Origin: Bellilinea sp.
GTDB lineage: Bacteria > Chloroflexota > Anaerolineae > Anaerolineales > Anaerolineaceae
Length of the DNA: 63,721 nucleotides
Reading direction: 5' to 3'
NCBI GenBank assembly: GCA_037442545.1
Contig: JBBIQB010000001.1
Span: 1 to 63,721, forward strand
Shown piece by piece: positions 24,386 to 63,721 of this stretch. The notes under the pieces were generated by a model. It saw only the letters and a program-made list of their open reading frames with translations. It was not told the DNA's origin and searched no databases. The translations under genes and the position numbers were made by a program. Numbering within the stretch: position 1 is the first letter of the stretch; every line of letters begins with the position of its first letter.

Positions 24386-25714
24386 TTAACCCGCACTGTC
24401 GCCGTCTGCCTTCGCGGACGGCAGCGGAGAAACCGAAGCGTCTGCCGCCTGGGGGCGCAGGCGAGCGTTCATGAACAGCAACAAAAACAGGTTGATCAGC
24501 GCCAGCAGCCCCAGCGCCAGCCAAGCCAGCTGATTTTGCGCCCCGTATTCCGCCGGCAGCAGGCGCAGCGGCAGCTGCGGCAGCGCCGGCGCCGCGCTGA
24601 GGATGGCAAACAGGTTCCAGGCAGCGTGCAACCCAACTGCCAGCAGGTAGCTGCCCGCCAGGCGCAGCGCATTGCCGATCTGCCCCGCCTGATTTTGGCG
24701 GGGTTGCCCCGCCTGATTTTGGCGGGGTTGCCCCGCCTGAGTCTGGCGGGGTTTTTGCCAGAAACACGCCATGCCCCAGCCGAGGATGCCGGTGGCGGTC
24801 ATGTGCAGCAGCACGCTGCCCACGCGCAGCACCAGGATCACCGTCCCGCCGCCTTCACCCGCGCTGCCCAGCGCGTTGATGTTCTCCCACAGCCCAAAGG
24901 CTGCCCCGCACAGCGCCCCGCCCAGAAAGCCCTGCGCCGGGGTCAGGCGGTCGCCGGCAAACAACCACAACGCCAGCGGCTTGAGCAGTTCCTCCACCAG
25001 CGGGGTCAGACCGGCAATCAGTCCAATCAGCAAGGCAACAATAACCGGGTCTGTGAACAGCATATCGGAGATGCGGGTGAGCAGCGCCGGGTCGAGTTGT
25101 CCCTCGTTCAGGCTCTGCATCAGCGGCAGCAGGCGCAGGGTTAATTCCGGGCGGTTGTACAGGTACACCCCCACGCCAATGAAGTACAGCACCAGTCCGA
25201 ACAGCGAAACCAGCAGCGTGACCGGAATGGTGACCACCAGCGAGAGGGCGGGAAGCACCCAAGCGCGCGATTGCGGCAGCGGCTCGAGCCGCTGCCGGGC
25301 AAGTTCGAACAGCCACCAAACCGGCAGTACCGCGCCGGTCACCACCAGCGGCGGCAGGAACAGCCACGCCAGATCGGATTGCTCGACGCGCTGGAACAGC
25401 AGCAGCACCACCGCCCACACCAGCAGCGCGGCGCTTGCACTTTTAAGCCTGCCCGTAGCGGATGCCGCCACCGGGCGCGGGCGCAGCACGGCAAACAGGG
25501 CGCGCGTGACCAGCGCGCCGAGCAGCGCGCTGGTCCACGCCAGATTAAAGAAGAAAACCACCGGGGTGGGCGGCGAATCGATCAATCCGCTGAGGAAGAG
25601 CACGCCCGCCAGCAGCGCGATCAGCGCCGCGCCGAACGCGCTCAACCCGCCCACCGCCAGAATGACGATCAGCAGCCAGTAACGCCAGACCGGTTCAACG
25701 CTTGCCTGCATCAT
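24386..25714 (-). CDS. PrsW-family intramembrane metalloprotease
   Basis: PLVEELLK, GAAFGLWEN, LLH and GLHAAWN motifs, many TM segments. Confidence 0.82.
   Translation of the reverse strand: MMQASVEPVWRYWLLIVILAVGGLSAFGAALIALLAGVLFLSGLIDSPPTPVVFFFNLAWTSALLGALVTRALFAVLRPRPVAASATGRLKSASAALLVWAVVLLLFQRVEQSDLAWLFLPPLVVTGAVLPVWWLFELARQRLEPLPQSRAWVLPALSLVVTIPVTLLVSLFGLVLYFIGVGVYLYNRPELTLRLLPLMQSLNEGQLDPALLTRISDMLFTDPVIVALLIGLIAGLTPLVEELLKPLALWLFAGDRLTPAQGFLGGALCGAAFGLWENINALGSAGEGGGTVILVLRVGSVLLHMTATGILGWGMACFWQKPRQTQAGQPRQNQAGQPRQNQAGQIGNALRLAGSYLLAVGLHAAWNLFAILSAAPALPQLPLRLLPAEYGAQNQLAWLALGLLALINLFLLLFMNARLRPQAADASVSPLPSAKADGDSAG
24681..24752. repeat. 3 x 24-bp tandem palindromic repeat inside the PrsW-family gene
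   Basis: TGCCCCGCC-TGATTTT-GGCGGGGT x2 plus one variant; encodes (K/Q)PRQ(T/N)QAG x3. Confidence 0.92.
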
Positions 25715-25732
25715 CAAGCCTCGCGGCGCGGG

Positions 25733-26986
25733 TTAGTTCTCGTCGATGGTCACACTCAGCACCGTCGAGCCGGGCGGCAGATCCGCCGGGGCGCTGCTGG
25801 CAGGGTCGCGCGGGGTGAGCGCCTGGACAACCTCCATGCCTTCGATCACTTCGCCGAAGATGGTGTAACCGCCGTCCAACTGGGGTGTTTCCGTGTAGGT
25901 GATGAAGAACTGGCTGCCGTTGGTGTCGGCGCCGGCGTTCGCCATACCGACCAGCCCGGCGCGGTCGAATTTCATATCCGCCGAAACCTCGTTGGCGAAC
26001 TGGTAGCCCGGTCCGCCGAAGCCGGTGCCGGAGGGGTCGCCAGCCTGGGCGACGAAATCGGGCAGCACGCGGTGGAAGATCATCCCGTCGAAGTAGCCCA
26101 TCTTTGCCAGAAAGACGAACGAGTTGACCGCCAGGGGGGCTTTATCGGCGTACAGTTGGATCTTAATGTCACCCTGGTCGGTCTTGAGCGTGGCGGTGTA
26201 CTGCTTATCGGGCGAGGTGATTACCGGCGGGCACTGGTCGTACTGCTTGGGGCGCAGGTTTGCCAGTTTGAGGATCGCATCCAGGGTGGCTGGGTCGTAG
26301 GGCACCTGGTCTTCGGGGACGAAGATCAGCTCGCCATCGATGAAGATGTACAGAGAGGGTGTGCCCTGCAAGCCCATTTCGACGCCCTGCTGAAAGGCGC
26401 CTTCCACCTTGCGCACCACCGCCTCGGTGTTCAAATCGCGGCTGAAGCGGGCAGCATCCAGATCAATGGCGGCGGCTTGCTCGCCCAGCCAGTTCTCGAA
26501 ATCGGCTTTGCTTTGGGTGGACCAGGTTTGCCAGTTGGCTTCGGCAAACAGCAGGTCGTGCATCTCCCAGAATTTGCCTTGCAATCCGGCTGCTTCGGCA
26601 GCCTGGGCAGCCAGCACGGCTTTGTCGTGCGAGCTGAGCGGGAAGTGGCGGAAGACCACCCGCACCTGGTCGGGGTTGGCTTCTTCGAACTGTTTGAGCA
26701 GCTGCCCGGCAAGCGCGCAGTACGGGCATTGGAAATCGCTGTACTCAACCAGCGTCAGGCGGGCATTTTCCGGTCCGCGCGACCAGTCATCCGCGCTGAC
26801 CAGCGGCAATTTGACCGACGCCGGGTCACGCGGCTCGGGGAACAGCGAGAACAGCGTACACGCCATGGGGGGACCTTCCGGCAGCGGCTTGCGGGTGGGG
26901 GTCGGCTCGGCAGTCGGGGCAGCCGGGGCGCACGCCGCCAGCAGCAGGGCGACGATCAGAAGCATCCATAATCCAGTTTTACGCAT
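25733..26986 (-). CDS. Lipoprotein fusing a DsbA-like thioredoxin domain and a cyclophilin PPIase
   Basis: Lipobox LAAC; YSDFQCPYC, FRHFPL and GTP (DsbA-like); FHRVLPDFVAQAGDP...MANAGADTNGSQFFIT (cyclophilin). Confidence 0.9.
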   Translation of the reverse strand: MRKTGLWMLLIVALLLAACAPAAPTAEPTPTRKPLPEGPPMACTLFSLFPEPRDPASVKLPLVSADDWSRGPENARLTLVEYSDFQCPYCALAGQLLKQFEEANPDQVRVVFRHFPLSSHDKAVLAAQAAEAAGLQGKFWEMHDLLFAEANWQTWSTQSKADFENWLGEQAAAIDLDAARFSRDLNTEAVVRKVEGAFQQGVEMGLQGTPSLYIFIDGELIFVPEDQVPYDPATLDAILKLANLRPKQYDQCPPVITSPDKQYTATLKTDQGDIKIQLYADKAPLAVNSFVFLAKMGYFDGMIFHRVLPDFVAQAGDPSGTGFGGPGYQFANEVSADMKFDRAGLVGMANAGADTNGSQFFITYTETPQLDGGYTIFGEVIEGMEVVQALTPRDPASSAPADLPPGSTVLSVTIDEN

Positions 26987-27001
26987 CAGAGGGGTACCTT
27001 T

Positions 27002-27619
27002 CTAAGGGGAATTCAGGCGCGCCAGAACATTGTGGCGCAGCACAGCTTGGACCGCGTCGGCGGGCTGGCAGGCGTCCACCACCACCCAGCGCTGCGGTTC
27101 GGCGGCAGCCAGTTGGAAGTAGCCTTGGCGCACGCGGCGGTGAAACTCCGCGTCGTAGGCGTCCAGGCGGTTCCATTCGCTGGCAGCCTGTTTACGGCGC
27201 AGCCCGTCGAGCGGGTCAATATCGAGCAAAAAGGTCAGGTCGGGTTGCAGTCCGCCGGTAGCAAAGTCGAGCAGGCGGCGCAGCATGTCCAGATCAACGC
27301 TGTGACCGTAGCCCTGGTAGGCAAGGGTCGAGTCGGCGTAGCGGTCGCACAGGATGACCGTGCCCTGTGCCAGCGCCGGGCGGATGACCTCCTCGACCAG
27401 TTGGGCGCGCGCCGCCAGGAAGAGCAGAATCTCGCTGCGCGGGTGCATGGCGGTATTGCCCAGGTGCATCAGAATCGCGCGCACCTGTTCGCTGATCGAC
27501 GTACCGCCAGGCTCGCGCAGGCTGAGCGTCTGCCGCCCGCCAGCGCGCAAAAACTGCGCCAGCGCGTTGATCTGGGTGGTCTTGCCGCCGCCTTCGGGTC
27601 CTTCCAGGGTTATGAACAA
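27002..27619 (-). CDS. tmk: Thymidylate kinase
   Basis: FITLEGPEGGGKTTQ, REPGG, LFLAARAQ, CDRYADSTLAYQGYG. Confidence 0.96.
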   Translation of the reverse strand: MFITLEGPEGGGKTTQINALAQFLRAGGRQTLSLREPGGTSISEQVRAILMHLGNTAMHPRSEILLFLAARAQLVEEVIRPALAQGTVILCDRYADSTLAYQGYGHSVDLDMLRRLLDFATGGLQPDLTFLLDIDPLDGLRRKQAASEWNRLDAYDAEFHRRVRQGYFQLAAAEPQRWVVVDACQPADAVQAVLRHNVLARLNSP

Positions 27620-27786
27620 GAAAAGCCGTACTCCTTGCGATCTGCAGCGCCTGTCATTGGATGGAATTGTACCAGAGAAAACCGGGAGCGAAACGGGGCA
27701 ATCGGATCGGTTGCCGTTTTGCCGCCAGCCGCCGGGCGAAAAAATGGGGCTGGAAATCCCCCCGGCGGCTGTGATACAATCTGCCC

Positions 27787-28278
27787 ATGGAGCATCTCTG
27801 GTCGCCGTGGCGTATGAAATACATCCAGCAAAACGATAAAGCCAACGAGTGCGTCTTCTGCCTTGCTCCCCAGCAGCCAGACAGCAGCGAAAACCTGATC
27901 ATCGCCCGCGCCGAGCGGGCTTTTGTCATCCTCAACCGCTTCCCGTATACCAGCGGGCACATCATGGCGGTGCCGTACGCCCACCAGCCCAGCCTGCCGC
28001 AGTTGGATGCCGCCACGCGGGCGGAGGTGATGGAACTGATCAACCGCGGCATGCAGGCACTGCAAATGGTGTACCAGCCGGAGGGCTTCAATCTGGGCGC
28101 CAACATTGGCGGCGTGGCGGGGGCGGGCATCGCCGGGCATTTTCACATTCACGTCGTGCCGCGCTGGACGGGGGACACCAACTTCATGTCCACCCTGGCA
28201 GGGACACGCGTACTGCCCGAAACGCTGGAGGATAGTTACCGCCGCATTCGCGAGGGGTGGAAGCAACTGTATTCATAA
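27787..28278 (+). CDS. HIT-family hydrolase
   Basis: LWSPWRMKYI, CVFC, LNRFPY, HFHIHVVPRW. Confidence 0.93.
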   Translation: MEHLWSPWRMKYIQQNDKANECVFCLAPQQPDSSENLIIARAERAFVILNRFPYTSGHIMAVPYAHQPSLPQLDAATRAEVMELINRGMQALQMVYQPEGFNLGANIGGVAGAGIAGHFHIHVVPRWTGDTNFMSTLAGTRVLPETLEDSYRRIREGWKQLYS

Positions 28279-28366
28279 GCGCAAACGCGCGCTAAACCAG
28301 GGGCTGCGGTACGGCAGATTCCAGCGGGCTGGCTTCAGCCTACATTACGATTACCGGAGACACGGC

Positions 28367-28783
28367 ATGGCATCCACTACGGTTAAATGGATTGGCGGCA
28401 AACAATTCGTCGGTATCGATTCGACCAACCATTCGGTCGTCCTGTCCACCGCGGAGGAAGGGGTGGGCATGAAGCCCTCCGAACTGCTGCTGGTGGCATT
28501 ATCCGCCTGCACGGCGGTGGACGTGGTCAATATCCTGTTGAAAAAGCGCATCCAGCTGACCTTCTTGGAGATTAAAGCCGAGGGCGTGCAGGACAGCGAC
28601 CCGCCGTGGACCTTTCGCAAGATTAACCTGCTCTACCGGCTGGGCGGCAAAGGGCTGACCGCCGCGGCAGTGGAGCAAGCCATTCACCTCTCCGAGGAGA
28701 AATACTGCTCGGTTTCCAACACGGTGCGCGGCGTGGCGCAGATCACCACCGCCTACGAACTGGTCGGCGAATCCACCGGCTGA
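28367..28783 (+). CDS. OsmC family protein (YhfA-like)
   Basis: KPSELLLVALSACTAVDVV, LSEEKYCSV; GGAG RBS. Confidence 0.88.
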   Translation: MASTTVKWIGGKQFVGIDSTNHSVVLSTAEEGVGMKPSELLLVALSACTAVDVVNILLKKRIQLTFLEIKAEGVQDSDPPWTFRKINLLYRLGGKGLTAAAVEQAIHLSEEKYCSVSNTVRGVAQITTAYELVGESTG

Positions 28784-28790
28784 GGGCGCA

Positions 28791-28808
28791 CCCTTCGACA
28801 CGCTCAGG
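28791..28808. repeat. REP-like element (CTTCGA family)
   Basis: CCCTTCGACACGCTCAGG between convergent genes. Confidence 0.6.
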
Positions 28809-28875
28809 CGGATGCTAGCAACACATTGCTCAGGGGCGGGCAGCAGCAAGCCTAGCCCGTGCCTCAGGCGCAGAT

Positions 28876-29433
28876 TTAGCAGTCCGCCTCGGGCGGGTAG
28901 AGCTGCGGGTTCTTGAACGGGATCAGCGCCAGCAGCACCGCCTGTTCGTAATAGGCCGCGCGGTCGAGCGCGTCGTGGGTCAACAGCCCGACCGCGCCGT
29001 TGCCCTGCTTGGAATTCTGCCGCCCAAAGATGCGGTCGTCCGCCTCGCCCAGTTCGACACCGCGCCGCACCAGTTCCGCCAGCGCCGGCGGCAGGTAAAA
29101 GGCGCTGCTGCGCGCCTTGCCGCAGCGCCCGGCAGAGAGCGCCGCCACCCAGGCGAAGGCGCTCATCTCGCCGCGGCTGTCCTCCACCCCGCCCTCCACA
29201 CCGACCCAGTAATCCGCCTCCGGCAGAGCCGCCCGCGCCGCCCGTGCGCGGTTTAGCGCGCCTTGCAGCGTTTCGGCATCGCTGAACGGCTGGTCGCTCA
29301 CCCCGGAGGGCACGCCAATTCCGCGCACGGCAAACGCCTGAGCGGGGAACATGCGCTCGAAGCCAGCCTGCACACACGCCCGTTTGACCGGGTTTAACGA
29401 AGCCACTACCACCTGAACCACCCTCTCCACCAT
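28876..29433 (-). CDS. yjjX: Inosine/xanthosine triphosphatase
   Basis: VASLNPVK, SGVSDQP, GALNRA, VGVEGG, GVELGEADD, GAVGLLT. Confidence 0.92.
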   Translation of the reverse strand: MVERVVQVVVASLNPVKRACVQAGFERMFPAQAFAVRGIGVPSGVSDQPFSDAETLQGALNRARAARAALPEADYWVGVEGGVEDSRGEMSAFAWVAALSAGRCGKARSSAFYLPPALAELVRRGVELGEADDRIFGRQNSKQGNGAVGLLTHDALDRAAYYEQAVLLALIPFKNPQLYPPEADC

Positions 29434-29454
29434 GCTGATACTCCTGCGACTCGC

Positions 29455-29592
29455 TTATCCCGGCGGCGACCAGCCGCCCACCACCCACAACCCGCCGGGC
29501 GGGGCGAGCGGGTGCTCCCAGCCGCGCTCGGAGAAGACGCGCTCCCGATTGGCGCTGGATTGAGCGTGTCGGGCGAAGATCAGGCGCAGCAT
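29455..29592 (-). pseudogene. Truncated histidine-phosphatase family gene
   Basis: MLRLIFARHAQSSAN...HPL is a histidine phosphatase N-terminus, but the ORF ends after 45 aa. Confidence 0.65.
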
Positions 29593-29596
29593 GACC

Positions 29597-30364
29597 TCAC
29601 GGCTTGATCGCCCGGGTGGCAATGTAGGATGGAATATACTCGCCGAGCACGCTGGTCGGGTCAATGTCCTCGAACAAACCGGTCAGCACCAGCCCAGCCG
29701 CCAGTTGACCACCGATCTGCTCGTCGAGCGAATGGCTCCATTCCAGCGGCAGACCTTGCGCCATGTACGTTTGGAGCTGCTCGGGGGTCTGGTGGGTCAG
29801 GTCGGAATAGGGCAAGCGGTTGCGCACCACCAGCCGCCCCTGGTCGAGCTGATCGAAGTCGAACAGGTAAGCCAGCGGGTTGTTGAAGCCCGCCAGCAAC
29901 ACCCCACCGCGGCGCAGCACGCGGCTGGCTTCGCGCCACATGGGCAGCACGTCCGGGATGAAAATATTGGACACCGGGTGCACGATCAGGTCGAAACTCT
30001 GGTTGGCGAAGACCGACAGGTCGCGCATGTCGCCCTCCACCAGGCGGATAGCAAAGCCCTCGCGCTGTGCCACGCGGCGGTCCTGCGCCAGCTGGGCAGG
30101 TGAATTATCGAACACGGTCACATTCGCGCCGCAGGCTGCCAGCAGCGGACCCTGCTGACCGCCGCCGGAAGCCAGGCAGAGCACCTCGGCGCCCGCCAGC
30201 GGCGGGAACCATTCAGCGGGCACAAAGCGGGTGGGGGTGAGCAGAATGCGCAGTTCGCCGCGGCGGGCGGCTTCGACTTCCTGCGGGTTGACCGGCACAG
30301 TCCACGGGTTGCCGCGCTCGACCTCGCGGTTCCACGCCTCGCGGTTGTAAGCACGAATATCCAT
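29597..30364 (-). CDS. Class I SAM-dependent methyltransferase
   Basis: [28 protein letters not shown]; GGAGG RBS. Confidence 0.88.
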
Positions 30365-30468
30365 GTGCCCCTCCGGGTGTGATTTTGCTCTGATTGTACC
30401 GTGAATCAAGGTATCATTGTTCTTGGAACGCGAACTTGCACTGCCATGCTGCCCGCCGGAGGTTGCCG

Positions 30469-31167: not shown

Positions 31168-31239
31168 AGCCCGCCGCGGCGCGGGAACTTTCGCCCGCCG
31201 GACGGGCATTGTATACTTACTGCCGCCCCTGCCCGCGCG

Positions 31240-31430
31240 GGCGGCGCGCTGTTGCTGGTGGCGGCGCTGATCGGCATGCTGGTCTGGTTTGGCTGGGCGG
31301 CGCGCAAGAAACCCTCCTGGCAGGAGGCGGGCGTGGCGGGCAGGCTGCTGCTCGTCCCACTGGCGGCGTCGCTGCTGCCGCGCATTGGCGATGTGCTGCT
31401 GGCAGCTGTTTTACCTGTTGTGGAGTTGAG
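31240..31430 (+). pseudogene. Membrane-protein gene remnant at the left edge of the copper island
   Basis: Hydrophobic GGALLLVAALIG...DVLLA with no good start; its apparent ending LFYLLWS* is one base out of frame and lies in the direct repeat. Confidence 0.4.
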
Positions 31431-31659: not shown

Positions 31660-31690
31660 ATTTCTCTTTTATTCGACATAAGGAGAAAAA

Positions 31691-41181: not shown

Positions 41182-41276
41182 CGGGAGATTGCTTCAGCCC
41201 GAAGAGCGGGCTTCGCAATGACGTCGAGATTGATCCGGATGTCGTTGCGAGGGCGACAGCCCGAAGCAACCTCCCG
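41182..41276. repeat. RPE-like long palindromic element
   Basis: CGGGAGATTGCTTC...TCGCAATGAC / GTCGTTGCGA...GAAGCAACCTCCCG inverted arms between convergent genes. Confidence 0.72.
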
Positions 41277-54122: not shown

Positions 54123-55450
54123 ATGAAATATTACATCTGGACCGAAGGCTGTCAGATGAACGTCGCCGACTCGCAGCGGGTGGCTTCGGCGCTGGAACAC
54201 CTCGGCTACCACAGCGCGCCGCGCGCCGAAGAAGCCGACGTGATCGTGCTCAACACCTGTGTCGTGCGCCAGTCCGCCGAGGACAAAGCCTACGGGCGGC
54301 TGAGTTCACTGCGCCCGATCAAAAAACAACGCCCCGACCTGGTCATCAACCTGATGGGCTGCCTGGTCGGCGTCAAGGGCAACCCGCAGGTGAGCGGGCG
54401 CTTCCCCTACGTGGACGTCTTCTCCCCGCCCTCCGACCCGCGCCCGCTGGTCGAGTACCTGCTGCAACGCGACGGGCGCGACCAGCAGCAAACCGAGACC
54501 GCGCTGCGCTTTGCCCTACAGGACGAAGACCTGACCCTGCCCGCCGCCGAGCGCGGCAGCCTGGTCTCCGCCTTTATCCCGGTGGTGTACGGCTGCTCGC
54601 ACGCCTGCACCTTCTGCATCATCCCCTACCGGCGCGGGGTGGAAAAAAGCCGCCCGCCGGAGGATCTCCTTGCCGAGGCGCGCGCGCTGGTCAGCCAGGG
54701 CGTGCGCGAGATCACCCTGCTAGGGCAGATTGTTGACCGCTACGGCAAGGACGAGCCCGCCTACCCCACGTTAAGCGGCTTGCTGCGCCGCCTGCACGCC
54801 ATTCACGGGCTGGAGCGCATCCGCTTCCTCACCTCGCATCCCAATTGGATGACCGACGACCTGCTCGACGCGGTGGCGGAACTGCCCAAGGTGATGCCGC
54901 ACATCGAAGTGCCGGTGCAAGCCGGCGATGACGCCGTGCTGGAAAACATGCGCCGCGGCTACACCGCCGACCAATACCGCACGCTGGTCGAAAAAATCCG
55001 CGCGCGCATTCCCGGTGTGTCGATCGCCACCGATGTAATCGTCGGCTTCCCCGGCGAGAGCGAGGCGCAGTTCCAGCACACCTACGACCTGCTGGCGGAG
55101 TTGAAACTGGACGTTGCCCACCTGGCACGCTATTCGCCGCGCGCCGGCACCGTCTCCGCCCGGCGCATGGCAGACGACGTGCCGGACGAGGAAAAATGGC
55201 GCCGCTTCCGCCTGCTGGAGGAACTGCAGCAGCAGATTGCCGCCGGTATCCACGCCGCCTGGCTGGAGCGCACGGTGGAGGTGTTGTTCGAGGAAAAGGT
55301 GCGCGGGCGCTGGAAAGGACGCACCCCGACCAACAAACTGGTCTTCGTTGAGAGCCAGCGCGACCTGCGCGGTGAAATTCTGCCGGTGCAGATCACCTGG
55401 ACAGGACCCTGGTCGATGCGGGACAACCCCGCCAGGTTCAGGCGGGGTGA
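54123..55450 (+). CDS. miaB: tRNA 2-methylthiotransferase MiaB (3' end apparently frameshifted near 55421; as read, the ORF runs on to 55676)
   Basis: GCQMN, NTC, GC motifs; radical SAM CSHACTFC; TSHP; TDVIVGFPGE; YSPR; TRAM domain ending WTGPWSMR. Confidence 0.92.
55424..55447. repeat. Single copy of the 24-bp palindromic element at the miaB/M23 junction
   Basis: CAACCCCGCC-AGGTTCA-GGCGGGG matches the reverse complement of the PrsW repeat unit. Confidence 0.8.
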
Positions 55451-56178
55451 AGAAATTCCTCGCCGTTGTGCTGGGCGGGATGATCGTCGCCGGGCTGGTG
55501 GGCGGCTATTTTTATTTCGTCCACCCGCACCGCACCGCCAGCCGTACCACCCGCGTGGTGCAGTTCCTGCGCAACCCGCAAACTTATGCCGCTTGGGCGG
55601 TCAGCGCCAATACCCGCTGTCCGGGCGCACCGTTTGCCTTACCCACCAGCGGGTACATTGGCTTTCTGTGGGATGATTCCTTCCGCCCGGGTCACCGCCA
55701 CACCGGGCTGGACATCTTCGCCGGGACGACCAGCGGGCAAACGCCGGTCTTTGCCGCCTACGACGGCTACCTGACCCGCCTGGCGGATTGGAAATCCTCG
55801 CTGATTGTGCGCATCCCCGACGACCCGCTGCAACCCGGACGGCAGATCTGGACCTATTACACCCACCTGGCGGACGAGCAGGGCAATTCGCTGATTGCCG
55901 CTGCCTTTCCGCCCGGCAGCAGCGAGGTATTCGTCCCCGCCGGGACGCTGCTCGGCTACCAGGGCAATTATTCCGGCACGCCCGGCGCGCCGGTGGGCGT
56001 GCACCTGCATTTGTCCATCGTCAAGGACGACGGGCAGGGACGCTTTTTAAACGAGACGGACATCGCCAACACGCTGGATCCTTCGCCGTACTTCAACCTG
56101 AGCCTGAACGCCAACGACAATCCGCCCATGCCGCCGCTGTGCGCACCGGCAGCCGGCGCGGGCGGAGGCGCGCCGTGA
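55447..56178 (+). CDS. M23-family metallopeptidase
   Basis: GTG start KKFLAVVLGG TM; HTGLD (HxxxD), YTHL, HLH. Confidence 0.85.
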   Translation: MKKFLAVVLGGMIVAGLVGGYFYFVHPHRTASRTTRVVQFLRNPQTYAAWAVSANTRCPGAPFALPTSGYIGFLWDDSFRPGHRHTGLDIFAGTTSGQTPVFAAYDGYLTRLADWKSSLIVRIPDDPLQPGRQIWTYYTHLADEQGNSLIAAAFPPGSSEVFVPAGTLLGYQGNYSGTPGAPVGVHLHLSIVKDDGQGRFLNETDIANTLDPSPYFNLSLNANDNPPMPPLCAPAAGAGGGAP

Positions 56179-56870
56179 GCCGTCCGCCCAGTGCGCCGCA
56201 AAGCCCGCTGGCTGGTAGCGAGTCACCGCAGACTTGCGGGGTTGCCCCGCAGACTTGCGGGGTTGCCCCGCAGACTTGCGGGGTTGTGCTGGTGTGCGGC
56301 GCCGGGCGGGCGCCCGGGCGCGACCTGGCGCTCGGACTGGCGCGGGCGGGCTGGGCTGTGGCGGCGCACGATCTGCAGCCGCTGCACCTGGAGCCGCTGC
56401 ACGGCGAGGTGCAAGCCGCGGGCGGCGTCTGCCGCACCTACGTCGGCGACCCCGGCAAGGGGTTGGCGGCGCGGGCGCTGATAGACGACGTGCTGGCGGA
56501 TTTTGACCGCCTGGACGGGCTGGTGTACTGCCTGGGGGCAGCCCCGCCGGCTTCCCTGCTGCTGCTGGACGAATGGGACTGGCAGCGCGCGCTGGAACTC
56601 AACCTGAGCGCGCCGTTCCTGCTCAGCCAGGCTGCCGCGGCGGTGATGCGCGCCAACGGCGGCGGCGCGCTCTTCTTCGCCCTGCCGGAGGATGCGCCCT
56701 CCGCTTCGCTGCCGCTGGCGGTTGCCCGGGCGGGAATCGCCGGGCTGGTGAACGGCATGGCAGGCGAACTCTTGACGTATAATATCCTCTGTGCGCTGTT
56801 GCGCACCGCCGCGCCCGGCGGCAGCCCGGCGGCGTTGGAGCAAATCCTCGCCCAACTTGACCGCCGCTGA
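56175..56870 (+). CDS. SDR-family oxidoreductase-like protein (degenerate)
   Basis: VLVCGAGRAPG, RLDGLV, DEWDWQRALELNLSAPFL; no YxxxK. Confidence 0.65.
   Translation: MSRPPSAPQSPLAGSESPQTCGVAPQTCGVAPQTCGVVLVCGAGRAPGRDLALGLARAGWAVAAHDLQPLHLEPLHGEVQAAGGVCRTYVGDPGKGLAARALIDDVLADFDRLDGLVYCLGAAPPASLLLLDEWDWQRALELNLSAPFLLSQAAAAVMRANGGGALFFALPEDAPSASLPLAVARAGIAGLVNGMAGELLTYNILCALLRTAAPGGSPAALEQILAQLDRR
56224..56286. repeat. 3 x 21-bp tandem palindromic repeat inside the SDR gene
   Basis: CCCCGCAGACTTGCGGGGTTG x3, encoding PQTCGV(A/V) x3. Confidence 0.92.
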
Positions 56871-56912
56871 TCACTGCGCGCCGCCCATCCTTTTTGTGCG
56901 GGGGAGGCAGCC

Positions 56913-57713
56913 ATGTTCGTGACCTTTCGAGAATTGCTTCAGGAATTGCAGCGGCTGGGCGTCGAGCCCGGTAAGCCGGTCATTTGCCACGCTTCGCTCA
57001 AGGCGTTCGGCGAGGTGCGCGGCGGCGCGGATGCACTGCTCGGCGCGCTGCTGGCAGTTTTTCCGCGCCTGATGGCGCCCACCCACACCTACCAAACCAT
57101 GCTGATCCCCGAAGAGGGACCCGCGCACAATGGTATGACCTACGGCAGCGGCAAAGACCTGAACGCCATGGCGGTCTTTTTCACCCCCGACCTGCCCGCC
57201 GACCCGTTGATGGGCGTACTGCCCGAACGGCTGCGCTGCCACCCGCAGGCGCGCCGCTCCAGCCACCCGATCCTGTCGTTTGCCGGCGTGGGGGTCGATT
57301 CCGCGCTGCAAGCCCAAAGCCTGGCAGACCCGCTGGCGCCGCTGGGCGCGCTACAAGCTGAGGGCGGCTGGGTGCTGCTGCTGGGCGTCGATCACAGTGT
57401 CAACACTGCCATCCATTACGCCGAAAAAATAGCCGGGCGGCGGCAGTTCGTCCGCTGGGCGCTGACCCCCGGCGGCGTGGCCGAATGTCCCGGCTTTCCC
57501 GGCTGTTCGCTCGGCTTCGAGCAAGCCGCCCCGCTGCTTGCCCCCTTCACCCGCGAGACGACCATCGGCGGGGCGCGGGTGCGCGCGCTGCCGCTGGCGG
57601 AGATGATCAGCCTGCTGAGCGGGTGGATTCAGGAGGACGCGCTGGCGCTGCTGTGCAGCGACGCGCACTGCGAGCGCTGCAACGCCGTGCGCGCAGGGAT
57701 CACGTCATCCTGA
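56913..57713 (+). CDS. AAC(3)-family N-acetyltransferase
   Basis: HASL, MAPTHT, MGVLPE, RSSHPILSF, LLLGV...NTAIHYAE, GCSLGF. Confidence 0.85.
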   Translation: MFVTFRELLQELQRLGVEPGKPVICHASLKAFGEVRGGADALLGALLAVFPRLMAPTHTYQTMLIPEEGPAHNGMTYGSGKDLNAMAVFFTPDLPADPLMGVLPERLRCHPQARRSSHPILSFAGVGVDSALQAQSLADPLAPLGALQAEGGWVLLLGVDHSVNTAIHYAEKIAGRRQFVRWALTPGGVAECPGFPGCSLGFEQAAPLLAPFTRETTIGGARVRALPLAEMISLLSGWIQEDALALLCSDAHCERCNAVRAGITSS

Positions 57714-57732
57714 ATCCGGCCGGCTTCGCATA

Positions 57733-57784
57733 CCCTTCGACAGGCTCAGGGCACACCCGCGCGCTGGCTGAGCCTGTCGAAGCC
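57733..57784. repeat. REP-like inverted doublet (best-conserved copy)
   Basis: CCCTTCGACAGGCTCAGGG-N14-GGCTGAGCCTGTCGAAGCC. Confidence 0.8.
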
Positions 57785-57876
57785 AGCGGCGGGGGAAGGG
57801 TACACCCTTCGGGGATTCGCAAAGACATCCGCACGCCCCGCCCGCCCAAAAAGGACGTATAATCAATTGAAATCAT

Positions 57877-59163
57877 GTGACGAAGCAGCAAACCATGACC
57901 CTCGAAACCGCCATCATCCGCAACCGCTTCCCCACCCTGCAATCCGGCGTGGTCTTCCTGGACAGCCCCGGCGGCACGCAGATCGCCCTTTCTTCGCTCG
58001 ACCGCATCCAGCAGTACCTGACCGGCTCTAACGCCAACCACGGCGGCGCGTTCCGCACCAGCCAGCAGTCCGACGCTGTGCTGGACGCCGCCCATGCCGC
58101 TATGGGCGACTTTTACAACGCTGCCCGCCCGGAAGAGATCGTCTTCGGCAACAACATGACCACCCTCACCCTGCACTTCAGCCGCTCGATCGCTCGCACC
58201 TGGAACCCGGGCGATGTTATCGTGGTCACCCGGCTGGATCACGACGCCAACGTCACCCCCTGGGTGCTGGCAGCCGAAGAGCGCGGCGTGCGCGTGCGCT
58301 GGGTGGATTTTCACCCCGAGGACGGCACGCTCGATTTGGAGGACCTGCAGCGCGCGCTGGACGAAAAACCGCGCCTGCTGGCGCTGGGCTACGCCTCCAA
58401 CGCGCTGGGCACGATCAACCCGCTGGAAACGATTATTCCGATGGCGCACGCCGCCGGCGCGCTGGTGTACGTGGACGCAGTGCAATACGCTGCTCATGCC
58501 CCGATCGACGTGCAGGCGCTGGGCTGCGATTTTTTGGTCACCTCGGCGTATAAATTTTTTGGTCCGCACGCCGGCATTCTCTACGGGCGCTACGATCTGC
58601 TGGAAAGCCTGTTTGCCTACAAGGTACGCCCAGCGCCCAAGCATCCGCCCGGCAAGTTCGAAACCGGCACGCAGAACCACGAGGGCATTGCCGGCGTGCT
58701 GGGCGCGCTGGAATACCTGGAATGGCTGGGGGAAACCTTCGGCAGTGAATTCACCAAAGAACTTGGCAGCCATTACCACGGGCGGCGGCTGCGCCTGAAG
58801 CAGGCAATGGTCACCATCCGCGCCTACGAATACATTATCAGCCGGACGCTGCTGGACGTGCTTAAAACCGTGCCCGGACTGACTCTGTACGGCATCAGCG
58901 ATCCGCGCCGCATCAAAGACCGCGTGCCGACCTTTTCGTTCCGCCTGGACGGCATTCACCCGCGCGAAGTGGCTGAACGGCTGGCGCGCGAGGACATGTA
59001 CGTGTGGGACGGCAATTATTATGCCCTGTCGGTCACCCAGCGGCTGGGGCTGGAAGACAGCGGCGGCATGGTGCGGGTGGGAGCGGTGCACTACAATACC
59101 GTCCGCGAGATCAACCGGTTTGCCGAGGCGCTGCTGCGGATTGCCACAGCCGGTAAAAAATAA
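57877..59163 (+). CDS. Cysteine desulfurase-like class V aminotransferase
   Basis: LDSPGGTQ, DHDANV, VDAVQY, PLP lysine SAYKFFGP, FETGT; WDGNYYA lacks the catalytic Cys. Confidence 0.88.
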   Translation: MTKQQTMTLETAIIRNRFPTLQSGVVFLDSPGGTQIALSSLDRIQQYLTGSNANHGGAFRTSQQSDAVLDAAHAAMGDFYNAARPEEIVFGNNMTTLTLHFSRSIARTWNPGDVIVVTRLDHDANVTPWVLAAEERGVRVRWVDFHPEDGTLDLEDLQRALDEKPRLLALGYASNALGTINPLETIIPMAHAAGALVYVDAVQYAAHAPIDVQALGCDFLVTSAYKFFGPHAGILYGRYDLLESLFAYKVRPAPKHPPGKFETGTQNHEGIAGVLGALEYLEWLGETFGSEFTKELGSHYHGRRLRLKQAMVTIRAYEYIISRTLLDVLKTVPGLTLYGISDPRRIKDRVPTFSFRLDGIHPREVAERLAREDMYVWDGNYYALSVTQRLGLEDSGGMVRVGAVHYNTVREINRFAEALLRIATAGKK

Positions 59164-59166
59164 GCC

Positions 59167-59568
59167 TTATTCGCCGCTGCTGCGGCGTTCCTTGATCCCC
59201 AGGGCGGCGCGCACAGCGCGGCTGGCGCGCACCACCCCAAATATGTGCAGCGAGCGGATCACCGCTGCCGCCAGTTCGGGCGGCACGTCGGCGTCGATGG
59301 CCACCATGCCAATCACGCGCAGATCGAGCGTCTCGCCGTTGCGGCGGCGTTCTTCCAGTTCGGCGCGGCTCAATTGCAGCGCGCCCAGGGTCAACCCGCG
59401 CCGTTTGATCATCTCGCGCAGCGAATCCCCCTGCCGCTCGAGCTGAGCGCGGGCGGCGGTGCGCAGAAAATCGGTGCGGCTGGAATAGTAGCCTTCCTCC
59501 ACCAGCATATCGATCTGCCCGAGATCCACCACGCTCAGGTTGATGGTGACCTTTTCGGGTTCCGGCAT
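59167..59568 (-). CDS. CopG/ribbon-helix-helix transcriptional regulator
   Basis: EKVTINLSVVDLGQIDMLVEEGYYSSRTDFLRTA. Confidence 0.82.
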   Translation of the reverse strand: MPEPEKVTINLSVVDLGQIDMLVEEGYYSSRTDFLRTAARAQLERQGDSLREMIKRRGLTLGALQLSRAELEERRRNGETLDLRVIGMVAIDADVPPELAAAVIRSLHIFGVVRASRAVRAALGIKERRSSGE

Positions 59569-59575
59569 GGAAGGG

Positions 59576-59800
59576 TCAGATGCGCGGCAGACGGGATTTG
59601 CCGGCGTTCAGGTCAGCCTGGGGTGTTTCGGTTTCGTCGAAGGCTGGCGGCAGGGTTTGGGGGCGCGCGTGCTGCACCCGGCGGCGCAGCGCGGCTGAAA
59701 CGTAGTAAGCGTGCGCCGGGTGGATCAGCGCCGGGCGGTGGATGCGCCGCGAGCAGCGCAGCGGCAAATGTATGGAGGGCAGGGAGAGCAGAATTTGCAT
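59576..59800 (-). CDS. Small hypothetical ORF (74 aa) upstream of the CopG gene
   Basis: GGAG RBS before ATG 59800, downstream of a consensus promoter, ends 8 nt before the CopG start. Confidence 0.35.
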   Translation of the reverse strand: MQILLSLPSIHLPLRCSRRIHRPALIHPAHAYYVSAALRRRVQHARPQTLPPAFDETETPQADLNAGKSRLPRI

Positions 59801-59837
59801 GTTATACTCCAAATAGATTGCAATAAACATCCAAAAA

Positions 59838-59878
59838 ACATCTAAATAGAGTATAGATGTACTCGACGGGTTTGTCAA
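59838..59878 (-). promoter_or_regulatory. Promoter with ACATCTA-N9-TAGATGT inverted repeat
   Basis: TTGACA-N17-TATACT (59878-59850); the inverted repeat brackets the -10. Confidence 0.62.
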
Positions 59879-59973
59879 TCGAAAGATGGGCGCAGTCCGC
59901 CCGGTTGTGGTAGACTTCAGTCCGGATCACCGCCCGCGGGACGGTGCATTCACCCTGGCCAGGAGGTTTTGCG

Positions 59974-60318
59974 ATGTCCGCTCCATCTGTGCGCACTCAT
60001 TGGGTCAGTGTTGTCTTGTATGCGTTCTCCGGGCTGGCGCTTGCCCTGGGCGTTGTGCTGCTGGTGGGTTTGATCAACGCGTCCAATGCGCTGCCTGCCA
60101 ACCAGATCTTTTTCCAGATGATGGGGCTGGGGGAGATTGCCGGCCTGGTGCTGCGCCCGCTGCAATCGGCGCTGATCAACCTGGGGATTGTGCTGTTTGT
60201 GCTGATGAGCGCCATCGCCGCGCTGCTGTTCACCGCCGGGCGGCTGACCGCCGCGCAGCGTTCGCTGCTTGGGCGGGTGCGCCAGTTGGAATCAAAGGTC
60301 GAAGCGCTGGCAACCTGA
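59974..60318 (+). CDS. Hypothetical membrane protein
   Basis: AGGAGG RBS, two hydrophobic segments, coiled-coil-like end RVRQLE. Confidence 0.7.
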   Translation: MSAPSVRTHWVSVVLYAFSGLALALGVVLLVGLINASNALPANQIFFQMMGLGEIAGLVLRPLQSALINLGIVLFVLMSAIAALLFTAGRLTAAQRSLLGRVRQLESKVEALAT

Positions 60319-60329
60319 AGCGCGCCGCC

Positions 60330-60375
60330 GGCTGAACCCGTCGAAGCCCGTTGACAGCCTTCGACGGGTTGAGGG
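60330..60375. repeat. REP-like inverted doublet
   Basis: GGCTGAACCCGTCGAAGCC...CCTTCGACGGGTTGAGGG between convergent genes. Confidence 0.7.
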
Positions 60376-60403
60376 AGCGCAAGCCGGGTGGCTGCGCAGC
60401 GGC

Positions 60404-62353
60404 TTACCGGCAGCCTTCGCCGGCGTCCCAGCCTTCCAGCGACCACAGCGGGCTGCGCGCGCCGCTGTCCAGTTCGTACTGGCACAGGTCGGGGCGCGAA
60501 ACGGTCAGGTCAACGCGGAAGTACAGCGGCAGCGCGGGCAGGTTCTCGATAAACGCCTGCTGCACAGCGCGCTGCGCCTGCCAATAGGCATCCCCCTCGA
60601 AAGGCGCCGTCCGCTGGGCTGCCGCGCACAATGCATCGTAGACCGGGTCGCTCCAACCGCTGACGTTGACCCCCAGCCAGCTGTTGCCCGCGCGCGGGAT
60701 CTGATCGCCGCTGAACAGGAAGCACGGCGTGCCGCGCCCGGACTGCCAGGCGAACTGTGCCAGGTCGAAGTTGCGCCCGAACAGCGCGCCCTGCGCGCCC
60801 GGAGCGAATAACTCGCCCGCCTCCACCAGGCGCAGGTTAACCTGCACGCCGCAGCCCGCCAGGTCTTCGACGATTCGCTCGGCGGTCATCTGGCGCAGGC
60901 GGTCGGGGGTAGTGTGGTAGTCCAGGGCGAGCGGCGTGCCGTCCAGCACGTTGGCAACCCCGCTGGACAGGCGCGGCGTGGCTGGGTCGCCGTCCAGGTC
61001 GCGCCAGCCAGCCTCGTCCAGCAAACGCCTGCCCTGCTGCGGATCGAACGGCAGGGCGGGCAGGTCGGCGGCGTGCAGCGGGTGCGCCGGCGGGAAGAAC
61101 CCCAGCGGTACTGCCGAGCGCCCGTACAACAGCCGCTCGACCAGCGCGGCGCGGTCGATGCAAGCCGCCAGGGCACGGCGGGTGCGCGCATCACCTAGAA
61201 TGTCCTGGCGGTAGCCGCCCCACGGGGTGTAGCCGCCGTCGTAGGCAGCCGGGCGGATGCCAAAAGCCAGCTGTTCCCACACCGCGCTGGGAGCCGAGTG
61301 GATGCGCGCGGCACCTTTGTCCTGCAGCTCGGTCAGCACAATCAACTGACCTTCCCAATCGACGGTATTGTCGATGAAATCGCACGCGCCGTTGGCTAGC
61401 GCGGCAATGTTATTGTCGGCCGGCTCGCCGTAGAAGCGGAAGGTAAGCACGTCGAAGCGCGGCAAGCCCTCGCCGGCGCGAAAGTAGTTGGGGTTGCGCA
61501 CCAGGCGGATGCTCTCGCCGGGTGTCCAGGATTCGATCTGGTAGGCACCCCAGCCCAGCGGGCGGCGGTTGACCTGCTCGTTTTCGAGCAGTTCGGCAGC
61601 CGAATACTGCCCCCAGGCGTGTTCGGGCAGTGGCAGCCAGAACAGGGCGGCGTGGTCGTCCGGCAGGTAGCCGGGCAGCCCCTGCCATTGCACGCTGGTC
61701 TCGTCCAGCGCGCGGTAGTCGAGCGTGCGTTCGACCAGGCGGCGGGCGGCGGGCGTTTGCGGGTCGGCAGCCAGGCGGAAGGCATAGACCGAATCGGCGG
61801 CGGTCAGCGCGGTGCCGTCCTGCCAGCGCAAACCGGGCAGCAGGCGGAAGGTGAGCGTCAGGCGTTCCATGTTGAGCGGCGAGACACCGTCCCAGCGCAC
61901 GGCGCAATCCGCGGCGCGGCAGCCGGCGGGCAGCACGCTCACGCCGGTGTCGAGCACGGCCGGGTTGCCGCGCGCGTCGAGCACGTCTGCGCCGCGTTCG
62001 ACCGGCAGCGACTCGATCTGCGCGCCGCCGTTTTCCAGGCTGGGCAGTCCGTCGAGGATGACCGGCTGCGGCTGGTAGGCGCGGTAGTCCACCGGTCCGT
62101 CATAAATGGCTTCCAGCACGTTCCACATGGCGCGCGAGCCGCCCCCCGCGTACAGGTAGAGCGAAAGCGGTTCCTGCCCCAGGCAGATGTTCAGTTCGCG
62201 CGGCGGGATGGGCGTCTCGGTCGGCGGTGGGCTGGTCAGCGTTGGCACAGGGGAGGGCATGGTGGTGGGGGCGAGCGGACCACCGCTGCAGGCTATCAGC
62301 AGGGCGGACAAGATTAGGGTGAGCACAAAAACGGTCAGGGTTTTGGTAGGCAT
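60404..62353 (-). CDS. Peptide ABC transporter substrate-binding lipoprotein (family 5)
   Basis: Lipobox LIAC, GQEP.SL, WQDGTALTAADSVY, PLGWGAY, RNPNY, LPALPLY. Confidence 0.88.
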   Translation of the reverse strand: MPTKTLTVFVLTLILSALLIACSGGPLAPTTMPSPVPTLTSPPPTETPIPPRELNICLGQEPLSLYLYAGGGSRAMWNVLEAIYDGPVDYRAYQPQPVILDGLPSLENGGAQIESLPVERGADVLDARGNPAVLDTGVSVLPAGCRAADCAVRWDGVSPLNMERLTLTFRLLPGLRWQDGTALTAADSVYAFRLAADPQTPAARRLVERTLDYRALDETSVQWQGLPGYLPDDHAALFWLPLPEHAWGQYSAAELLENEQVNRRPLGWGAYQIESWTPGESIRLVRNPNYFRAGEGLPRFDVLTFRFYGEPADNNIAALANGACDFIDNTVDWEGQLIVLTELQDKGAARIHSAPSAVWEQLAFGIRPAAYDGGYTPWGGYRQDILGDARTRRALAACIDRAALVERLLYGRSAVPLGFFPPAHPLHAADLPALPFDPQQGRRLLDEAGWRDLDGDPATPRLSSGVANVLDGTPLALDYHTTPDRLRQMTAERIVEDLAGCGVQVNLRLVEAGELFAPGAQGALFGRNFDLAQFAWQSGRGTPCFLFSGDQIPRAGNSWLGVNVSGWSDPVYDALCAAAQRTAPFEGDAYWQAQRAVQQAFIENLPALPLYFRVDLTVSRPDLCQYELDSGARSPLWSLEGWDAGEGCR

Positions 62354-62696
62354 CAGGGTTGTTCTCCGGTACATTAACATCCCTGATTATAACGAATAAC
62401 CGGCAAGAATCGCACTCGCCCGGGTAATCGGATCGATTTTTCTGGCGGTGAGGCGGTTTACACCCCATTCGTGCCCTTCGACAGGTTTTACCTGGCTGTT
62501 GGAGCCAGCCCGCCGAACTGATGCGCTGGCTCCAACGGTTAATCGCCAACTTTCCCCGCAGCAGAGCGGGCTTCGTCATAATCATTGCGCAAAACACCCC
62601 TCTTTATGTCATAATAACACAAGGGATGCTGCTTCGCCCGGCGGTGAATCCAACCGGTTGGGCAGGGGTTGCCCGGCATTTCCCAAAGGTCGCCAT

Positions 62697-63407
62697 TTGC
62701 GCAGGTTTCGTTTTCTCGGATTTGTCCTTTCAATCGTGATCCTAACCGGGTGTGCGCATTCCATCACCGTCATCGAGCATCCGCCCCTGGACTGGAGCAT
62801 CAATGCCCAGCGGCTGCGCGAAACAGGTTGCCTGCCGCCCTTGCAGGAATCCTGCCCGCAACTGGCTGCGCTCGGCTGTGATGCGATTCAAACACCGGGC
62901 TTCTACCTGGGTGGACTCCAGCCGCCGGTTGCCGTGATGGAATGTATTCATGCCAACGGCGAGCCTCCCAGTCGGGATTATTTCAAACAACCACCCGGTC
63001 TCGATCCCGGATATCGAAGTTATGCCGTTATCCAGGACGGGATGTACCGGCTGATCATCAAACAATCCGAATTCAAATCTCTGTTTGCCCCGGTGGAATC
63101 CACGGACGAAGCCTTGAGTTACGCCATGGCAATGACCTCGCTCGAGGCACGCTTCGACATCGATCCCGACGCCAATGTGGAATACCGGGTGGACGAAATT
63201 GAGGAAACTCACGCCGAAGAGACCCCCAACGGCTACCTTGTGCGCTTGTTTGATTGGTCGCACCGGATGGGGTGTGATACGCACCCCTTCTATGCGGTTG
63301 ACGTTCTCGTCACGCGGGAGGGCGATGTACGCGAAGTGGCGCGGGAAGAGATTTACACGAGCTATGCCTGCTTTGATTTTGAATCCCTGTCGCTGGATAA
63401 AGACTGA
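62697..63407 (+). CDS. Hypothetical Cys-containing lipoprotein
   Basis: TTG start RRFR + hydrophobic stretch + LTGC lipobox; FAPVESTDEALSYA; start uncertain. Confidence 0.6.
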   Translation: MRRFRFLGFVLSIVILTGCAHSITVIEHPPLDWSINAQRLRETGCLPPLQESCPQLAALGCDAIQTPGFYLGGLQPPVAVMECIHANGEPPSRDYFKQPPGLDPGYRSYAVIQDGMYRLIIKQSEFKSLFAPVESTDEALSYAMAMTSLEARFDIDPDANVEYRVDEIEETHAEETPNGYLVRLFDWSHRMGCDTHPFYAVDVLVTREGDVREVAREEIYTSYACFDFESLSLDKD

Positions 63408-63464
63408 ACGGCGTGGGCGAATCGGGTGGCATGCAACCAAGGGATATTTCGAGAGGATGACCGG

Positions 63465-63721
63465 ATGACGCGAAACCGTAAAATTCTCTTTGCCGCCAGC
63501 GGGGTTATCGGGCTGCTGGCGGGCATCAATTCGCCCGTGCTGCTGCCATACCCGCTGTTCGTGCTGGCGGTTTTGCGCGGCTGGAAACTGCCCAAATTCG
63601 GCGCTCCTGCGAGGCAACCCCGCAAGCCTGCGGGGCAATTGCTGGTTTCGACCATATTCTGCACCTTCTTCCTGGAAACATGCGCCTGGCTGGACAATTT
63701 CATCAAGAACGCGCCCCAGCC
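63465..63721 (+). CDS. Hypothetical membrane protein (runs off the window)
   Basis: GAGG RBS; open hydrophobic frame MTRNRKILFAASG...QPRKPAGQ... Confidence 0.6.
   Translation, partial: MTRNRKILFAASGVIGLLAGINSPVLLPYPLFVLAVLRGWKLPKFGAPARQPRKPAGQLLVSTIFCTFFLETCAWLDNFIKNAPQ
63606..63638. repeat. About 1.5 copies of the 21-bp palindromic element, intragenic
   Basis: CCTGCGAGG-CAACCCCGCAAGCCTGCGGGGCAA; near reverse complement of the SDR repeat unit. Confidence 0.8.

Follow-up and report, generated by a model that had tools for sequence, protein, structure and literature searches.

The small dispersed repeats (SDRs) of Nostoc and relatives, as treated by Elhai et al. in 2008, are reportedly 21-27 bases long and form nested arrays. 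How repeats of 20-30 bases, be they SDRs, repetitive extragenic palindromic sequences (REPs) or coding palindromes, reach new places is an open question. In the published accounts, SDRs appear as sequences of ~20 bases with tandem copies of varying number that are possibly mobile (PMC2884548; SDRs of Nostoc and relatives are also cited in PMC3116915), and REPs tagged by GTAG or CGTC occur with TnpAREP/RAYT (PMC3733652; PMC6006769; PMC8266576; PMC3333891), their dissemination route being stated as not known (PMC8266576; PMC3333891). Here we describe a family of G+C-rich hairpin units of 21 or 24 bases in the genome of an uncultured Bellilinea sp. (Chloroflexota, Anaerolineae; GenBank assembly GCA_037442545.1), starting from a contig of 63,721 nucleotides (JBBIQB010000001.1, positions 1 to 63,721), the whole of which is called the window below. 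A sequence-only reading of the window had noticed such hairpins at four genes and taken them for a small dispersed element that spreads in trans and adds peptides in frame; all four sites are present at the positions it reported, and its proposal is supported by identical 20-mers of units at up to 5 places and by empty sites in relatives.

In kind, the family is one of very small mobile repeats like the SDRs, with the in-frame habit of Rickettsia palindromic elements (RPEs) and intragenic REPs. The likeness to SDRs, drawn by description only, lies in the size of 20-27 bases, the dispersed occurrence, the tandem and nested copies, the recent mobility and the precise insertion into another repeat, whereas the Anaerolineae host belongs to another phylum, entry is 3′ of an NCAA-like word and the arms are shared with REP and IS200-type hairpins. 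Like GTAG/CGTC REPs, the unit is a short G+C-rich multi-copy stem-loop, the junction between adjoining units being the core of an Anaerolineae GTAG-REP with CMA-type loops, and some REPs likewise lie in genes, supply stop codons or are amplified in tandem. Unlike REPs, however, it has no GTAG/CGTC foot, its hairpin is circularly permuted, half of its copies are in genes instead of being mostly extragenic, no cognate tnpA flanked by the unit was found, and it inserts into CGTC-type REPs itself. RPEs (PMC10969869; PMC3184786) are also palindromes in frame in unrelated genes, with about half in open reading frames (ORFs), but they measure about 105-150 bases and encode a conserved peptide, whereas the hairpin units have 21 or 24 bases and are read in three phases. 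The GC clusters of yeast mitochondria (GC42; PMC4478555) resemble the family as G+C-rich palindromes with presence or absence among strains, a short target word, a conserved stem, a free loop and a mechanism left open; they differ in being organellar and 42 bases long, with a different target and no sequence kinship. On the tested features, the family is not one of REPs, RPEs or miniature transposable elements with inverted repeats (MITEs). The literature searched, whose coverage stops short of subscription journals, the Elhai 2008 SDR paper and the intragenic REP list of PMC3733652, contained no description of this hairpin family. The idea of an undescribed system goes too far as regards the kind, since SDRs, RPEs and intragenic REPs are known, and is fair, within that literature, for the hairpin family and its entry rule.

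The unit consists of CCCCGC-N6/N9-GCGGGG and a 3-base spacer, with a period of 21 or 24 bases. The 24-type reads CCCCGCC-N7-GGCGGGG plus spacer and the 21-type CCCCGCA-N4-TGCGGGG plus spacer, that is, a 7-bp stem (CCCCGCC/GGCGGGG or CCCCGCA/TGCGGGG) around a loop of 7 or 4 bases, and the predicted folding of units gave z values of -2.4 to -7.3. The source assembly (G000; 2.85 Mb, 59% G+C, 89% complete), of which the window is contig C1 and whose other sites are named by contig and position, holds 58 exact units at 44 sites, about 3 of the 58 being expected by chance. CCCCGC is followed by GCGGGG at spacing 6 in 20 cases and at spacing 9 in 38, against 0-6 cases for each other spacing from 0 to 30, and the reverse arrangement, GCGGGG then CCCCGC, peaks at spacing 3 (22 cases). 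A profile search extended the count to 75 units at 57 sites, with 0 in the reversed-genome control at the chosen threshold. Within called genes there are 36 exact units versus 0-5 across 10 synonymous-codon shuffles, and 70 matches in the assembly compare with 10-12 in four 5th-order Markov genomes. The window itself gave 9 matches to ACCCCGC-N3-15-GCGGGG versus 0.20 expected, with none of 100 shuffles reaching 9, the nine including one at 22361 (loop 3) outside the family and a copy in miaB counted on both strands. Thus, the hairpins are dispersed well beyond the window and their count is above chance. Tandem arrays are mostly of identical copies, a 24-type unit is nested within the loop of a 21-type unit at C20:16163, and the 24-type loop occurs in both orientations (19 versus 11). 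Self-templating from host DNA was rejected as a general source, because identical units lie at unrelated loci.

Comparison with relatives indicates that the hairpins are insertions, absent at the same places in close relatives. Two relatives, G012 and G015, have 80-91% DNA identity to the source assembly and carry the family themselves (16 and 12 matches, respectively, versus 0-7 in the others). Site-by-site alignment used 2.4 Mb of the about 4.0 Mb of G012 and one G015 locus, and gave a spanning alignment for 24 of 57 candidate sites and none for the other 33. Eight of the 24 are empty in relatives by exact units (+21 twice, +24 four times, +45 and +72), three are empty or unclear with other length differences (+19, +12 and +12), seven are shared with the relative or hold a similar hairpin there, and one is an assembly duplicate beside a gap; four were ruled out as insertions, the relative having ancestral coding sequence of the same length. 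The clearest window site lies in a gene for a PrsW-family intramembrane metalloprotease (24386..25714, minus strand; PF13367, E 5.6e-14), where three 24-base units (CCCCGC-N9-GCGGGG with CAA, CAA and CAG) stand in frame at 24680..24751 on the minus strand (best bounds) and add 24 residues translated as KPRQTQAGQPRQNQAGQPRQNQAG, in keeping with the three tandem copies noticed before. PrsW matches were found in 16 of the 22 other genomes, and all 16 lack exactly 24 amino acids (72 bases); prsW of the source assembly is 72 bases longer than that of both G012 and G015. In a short-chain dehydrogenase/reductase gene (56175..56870, plus strand; PF00106, PF13561; start inferred from the G012 alignment), three 21-base units lie within an N-terminal extension at 56224..56286 on the minus strand, with the CAA strand opposite to the gene and the reading PQTCGVA before the Rossmann motif, as had been read earlier save that the first unit is imperfect. 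G012 has none at this site, and its locus is 84 bases shorter.

Contigs from runs X2, X3 and X5 gave strain-level alleles as well. At C4:15170, a run X3 contig (1047 bases, 19 substitutions, depth 7.4; 98% identical) lacks exactly 24 bases; in the run X2 strain the dehydrogenase/reductase site has one unit instead of three, its loop inverted, and is 42 bases shorter. Copy number also varies at shared sites, with 1, 2 and 3 units at C88:6159 and 1 versus 3 at C60:12858. The notion that nothing here is mobile, the hairpins being ancestral coding sequence or local duplications that converged on a G+C-rich motif, could appeal to the few exact units due to chance and to the four sites with same-length ancestral sequence, but orthologues empty by exact unit differences, identical 20-mers at separate places and the nested copy at C20:16163 contradict it, so that it is refuted for the family as a whole and retains hardly any probability.

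The unit appears to have fixed ends at the spacer, since no junction occurs without an intact unit (0/22), while 31 of 58 units lack an intact junction; a unit with fixed ends that spreads in trans is highly probable. The same count bears on template switching, in which no dedicated enzyme acts: a stalled replication strand whose end pairs briefly (through GCAA or a portion of an arm) jumps to another copy of the unit, copies one period there and returns, and slippage expands the product. Entry anywhere in the period should then leave junction-only products, of which none was seen; in addition, the match at REP targets has only 4 bases and the family is limited to few lineages of similar base composition. 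On the other side, 52 of the 108 arm positions in nine empty G012 sites agree with the junction versus 29 expected (p < 5e-5), hence beyond the triplet, which is of the family type at 6 of the 9 (p 0.002), the arrays are mostly of identical copies and the searches found no enzyme. Furthermore, 107 bases are missing from the C4:23685 array in runs X2, X3 and X5, a length that is no multiple of the unit, and this loss in three strains lies between two GGCGGG matches. Overall, we regard template switching as an unlikely general route.

Spacer triplets (n=116) are dominated by CAA/TTG (46), followed by TCA (17), CTA (9) and CCA, AAG and TAA (7 each). The sequence-only reading had suggested that CAA/TTG could be a target duplication; as an obligatory duplication this does not hold, as the two flanks at C4:15170 are CCA and CTT, of which the empty strain retains just CCA, which argues that the 3′ spacer arrived with the element. 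Insertion without obligatory duplication is based on this strain-level site and one species-level site with unequal flanks. An extreme MITE, with inverted repeats and a length of 18 or 21 bases, mobilised by a DDE transposase whose insertions duplicate 3-4 bases of the target, would account for the 7-bp arms as terminal inverted repeats, for the equal triplets that flank 12 of the 30 single exact-stem sites on both sides (versus 1.4% expected) and for GCAA on both sides in 49 of the 58 metagenome loci listed, where the search pattern required CAA. Unlike in MITEs, however, the duplication is not constant, and the CCA/CTT flanks, set against an empty strain of 98% identity, would imply that two of three bases had changed. 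Moreover, 18-21 bp is too short for a two-ended double-strand complex, and no insertion sequence (IS) with these ends occurs among the repeated 20-mers of the source assembly, of which no full IS survey was made. A MITE is therefore, to us, very unlikely.

The target word emerges from a metagenome scan for the hairpin, which gave at least 120 matches in 119 stretches. Among the matches listed, loops of 6, 7, 8 and 9 number 28, 16, 18 and 58, respectively, and a G precedes the left CAA in 49/58 with loop 9 versus 18/62 with loops 6-8. Twenty-seven of the 58 listed loop-9 matches sit at one position of a repeat ending CTCGCAATGAC, which we take to be a CGTC-type REP, a label that partly follows PMC3733652. 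The unfilled repeat occurs 5 times in the same listed loci, twice in G012 and once in the window (41241..41267, minus strand, by sequence match), and at the filled metagenome sites GCAA is the sole match between the element and the repeat. The crossover allowed by alignment ranges from -4 to 0 at REP-borne metagenome sites (exactly so in 35 of the 58 listed) and from 0 to +4 at C4:15170, and is only 0 at C9:11465. As the REP-site and C4:15170 ranges share one position, the data fit a single site of entry, immediately 3′ of a word resembling NCAA. Another host repeat, which reads …GTGCCGCAA followed by CCAC/CAA…TAGGG, also bears the 24-base unit after GCAA in seven metagenome contigs (L198, L204, L208, L222, L229, L232 and L259). 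Many neighbours of the listed metagenome copies have 55-92% protein identity to G000 or G012 and others have weak or no match, so some of the metagenome hosts are likely Anaerolineae.

Based on these findings, we propose that the unit may be a minimal non-autonomous element moved as single-stranded DNA by an HUH (IS200/REP-type Y1) transposase acting in trans, a reading to which we assign a probability of about 45%. The single-stranded unit would be cut and rejoined just 3′ of an NCAA-like word, entering 3′ of the host's word and carrying its own spacer at its 3′ end, so that a target duplication would be resembled only where spacer and host word match. Once excised, it is predicted to close into a dumbbell circle of 21 or 24 bases whose second loop is the spacer and whose hairpin would be that of the GTAG-REP of other Anaerolineae. 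Each junction would be a new target, so arrays and nests could arise by re-entry; replication slippage likely contributes to arrays, and subsequent local events are the likely origin of the inverted loops and of the arrays with identical copies. In the 24-type loop, positions 2 and 8 are Watson-Crick paired in only 1 of 38 units; HUH substrates keep an unpaired position, a likeness that we count for this mechanism. IS608, of the IS200/IS605 group, enters 3′ of a tetranucleotide, retains a right cleavage site of its own, TCAA, and moves by way of a single-stranded circle (PMC3201880), and TnpAREP cleaves and recombines hairpin units and can build tandem copies (PMC3333891). Entry 3′ of a word with an own word at the 3′ end follows IS608 logic, and together with the recombining and amplifying activity of TnpAREP it favours the HUH mechanism. 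Likewise shared with IS608 are a short target word, the 3′-end word (TCAA in IS608, TCAA or GCAA here) and an imperfect hairpin; unlike IS608, the unit has 21-24 bases, one hairpin instead of two ends, no gene, a proposed cut 3-4 bases from the stem and a loose target word, and unlike IS200/IS605 derivatives it has no separate end hairpins with guide tetranucleotides matching an autonomous IS.

The relation to REPs and their enzymes is consistent with such a mechanism. Several other Anaerolineae also have GCGGGG-YNA-CCCCGC, the sequence of the junction, at high frequency (up to 31), and there it is the core of a GTAG-footed REP hairpin in most of 19 matching loci fetched; by sequence comparison, the unit thus reads as a circular permutation of that hairpin without its foot, neither GTAG nor CGTC being found at the stem foot in the flank counts of units. 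At locus L050 (G237:C66:14279-14347), three 27-base GTAG-REP-derived units stand in tandem inside a 575-codon open frame, which indicates that REP cores enter genes in frame in other Anaerolineae too. G012 encodes an IS200-type TnpA (NF033573, 92.8 bits; L189, G012:C6:154800-158300) whose flanks contain five hairpins built on a CTGA foot and on GGCGGGG and CCCCGCC as arms, and class 3 Y1 enzymes have CnGA feet (PMC6006769). The flanks of this tnpA comprise two hairpin arrays (five of 70-96-base period and six of 43-base period), a REPtron-like arrangement seen in G012 only. Its hairpin has 14 matches in G012, a decayed copy lies at the orthologous place in the source assembly, where the gene is missing, and at one G012 site the tail of a TnpA-type hairpin is the left arm of a 24-type unit.

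Several other candidates were set aside. In the source assembly, Y1_Tnp matches only the C-terminal domain of a protein that includes a response-regulator part; the match scores under the NCBIfam cut-off and shows by eye neither HUH nor tyrosine motifs. This fusion (L026, G000:C40:4260-5750), in which a receiver domain is joined to an IS200-like Y1 domain that looks inactive, is encoded just upstream of a polA-like gene, has counterparts as 500-residue frames in about ten genomes of the genus and is possibly a domesticated transposase fold. A match to NF047646 came only from a G012 contig without REP flanks and is probably contamination; the one IS110, in the source assembly only, has no element arms in its flanks by eye; the TnpB loci of G012 and G015 have ends unrelated to the unit; and integrases occur in all five genomes and hence are not specific.

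A number of points weigh against the HUH mechanism. No intact HUH transposase was found in the source assembly (89% complete) or in G015 (98% complete), no tnpA flanked by the exact unit was found, so that the sequence-only reading's transposase gene flanked by the same hairpin did not turn up in the source assembly, and the hairpins of the G012 TnpA, with 7-base loops and GGCGGGG first, are not the exact unit. There is no GTAG-REP in the source assembly or in 2.4 Mb of G012, and no conserved guide tetranucleotide was seen 5′ of the stem. For TnpAREP the cleavage sites are CT or CA and lie outside the hairpin (PMC8266576), and in IS608 the distance between cut and hairpin is 10-19 bases, not 3 (PMC3201880). 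A strand-specific enzyme does not explain both loop orientations without later inversion. Four single sites with identical non-CAA triplets on both sides (TAA twice, CTA and TCA) fit a true duplication better. Finally, the single entry point rests on few unequal-flank sites, drawing on G012 and a single strain contig (depth 7.4), and depends on the strand chosen, and the crossover interval test contains 0 by construction and is informative only with an empty allele.

RNA-mediated copying, by which a small hairpin RNA would be reverse-transcribed at a nicked target primed by GCAA, has reportedly been proposed for the cyanobacterial SDRs. It would suit the shared size class, the tandem and nested copies, the identical non-CAA flank pairs just described, the precise insertion of SDR5 inside HIP1 (PMC4390886) and the two reverse transcriptases encoded by G012. 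However, no reverse transcriptase was found in the source assembly, which has most copies, or in G015, nor was Cas1 found in either; no donor RNA locus appeared among the repeated 20-mers, and the flank at C4:15170 is not duplicated. This route is, in our judgement, quite unlikely.

Stricter patterns were searched in overlapping samples of 150 genomes from the order, 400 from the class and 400 from the phylum; apart from G000, G012 and G015, each genome gave at most 2 distinct matches. G012 alone carries a parallel family, CCCCGAC-N3-GTCGGGG plus TCAA, of 21 bases in 7 copies, with 0 in the 22 other genomes, and all five of its aligned sites are empty in the source assembly (+21 four times, +42 once). 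Three compensated stems, all of 7 bp, with the CAA end and whole codons, argue that the rule is one of structure and not of exact sequence. G023, G025 and G026 were rejected as carriers: the matches listed for G023 and G026 have mostly 7-8-base loops, and G025 and G026 have at most 2 with family flanks. G023, often near contig ends, and G026 hold many CCCCGC..GCGGGG hairpins with 8-base loops and G025 has 25 matches; these are other repeat families with the same arms. Viral contigs gave 9 matches across all loop lengths and 2 unrelated REP-context matches, and thus no indication of a phage donor.

Regarding the host genes, location and reading phase were called by a home-made hexamer gene model, by which 30 of 57 sites are gene-internal versus 77% of random positions, the rest lying at gene ends or between genes; copies are thus not typically intragenic, as the four window sites had made it seem. 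All three phases are read (QPR..AG, TPP..GGA and NPA..RG), so the shared QPR..AG peptide seen in the window is not a family trait. Depleted gene interiors and the use of all phases argue against genes as the target of the element and against a peptide shared by its copies. Inside a gene, each copy would add 7-8 amino acids, and the inserted peptides are likely tolerated passengers; the lengths in multiples of three are likely due to the need to survive in a 90% coding genome. In a miaB-type radical SAM gene (54123..55676, plus strand, with the frame running past 55450; PF04055, PF00919), one 24-base unit lies at the 3′ end (55427..55450, plus strand; core 55427-55447) and is present in G012 too, which makes it older than their split. 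Its spacer TGA serves as the stop codon in G012 and shares bases with the GTG (55447) at which the following gene is predicted to start. As assembled in the source genome, the element reads RDNPARFRRG; in G012 it reads QPRQVQAG-stop, so the QPR frame that had been obtained by correction was right in outcome; the shift in the source assembly comes from a deletion, just upstream, of 19 bases that are present in G012. A run X2 contig is 19 bases longer than the source assembly over 55395-56230, and the gap is either an assembly error or a recent mutation; because of it, the frame runs about 75 codons into the next gene (55418-55676). The fourth site is a 21-base unit at 63618..63638 on the plus strand, after GCAA (63614-63617), reading QPRKPAGQ and identified by sequence match, with no orthologue. 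Of the about one and a half units claimed here, one stands, and 63606-63614 upstream may be a decayed half unit or host sequence. The host ORF (63465..63721, plus strand), cut by the contig end, is a predicted small membrane protein called coding on its hexamer score, with no Pfam or NCBIfam match and no orthologue in 5 genomes searched. A weak candidate for a decayed 21-base unit lies at 17978..17995 on the plus strand (profile score 21).

Other features lie beside the family. The sole Rfam matches in the window are an FMN and a cobalamin riboswitch (3924-4057 and 4178-4323), which stand back to back, one on each strand; none falls at a hairpin site. An aminoglycoside 3-N-acetyltransferase family domain (PF02522; 56913-57713) follows directly after the dehydrogenase/reductase gene. 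A second palindromic repeat with the core CTTCGACAGGCTCAG occurs in the window at 57730-57790 and 28793 and at 23 places in the genome, often as inverted pairs, and is polymorphic among runs at 57733-57784. Two repeated contig-end families that start with AACGTGAGTTCGGG after T/A-rich DNA (C12, C25, C29, C107, C127 and C189; C23, C50, C80 and C91) are likely unassembled insertion sequences of the source genome.

In conclusion, this work tentatively raises the possibility, somewhat doubtful as it is, of a class of transposons consisting of one hairpin of 21-24 bases, which would leave the DNA as dumbbell circles and be integrated after NCAA by an HUH enzyme, and whose families vary in stem and loops but keep the 7-bp CCCCG stem, the CAA end and whole codons and parasitise genes and REPs. 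If true, it would represent the minimal unit of peel-and-paste transposition and suggest by what mechanism in-frame palindromes of 20-30 bases, unexplained in many bacteria, arise, and, if mobile as one unit, the hairpins would be among the smallest mobile DNAs, although coding palindromes are already known, which lowers the surprise. In this family, filled and empty alleles are known to the base, the entry word is defined, sister families show compensated stems and G012 provides a candidate enzyme, assets that studies of such repeats mostly do without; therefore, its mechanism is testable with oligonucleotides. For the host, the hairpins steadily supply core proteins with loops and tails of 7-8 residues.

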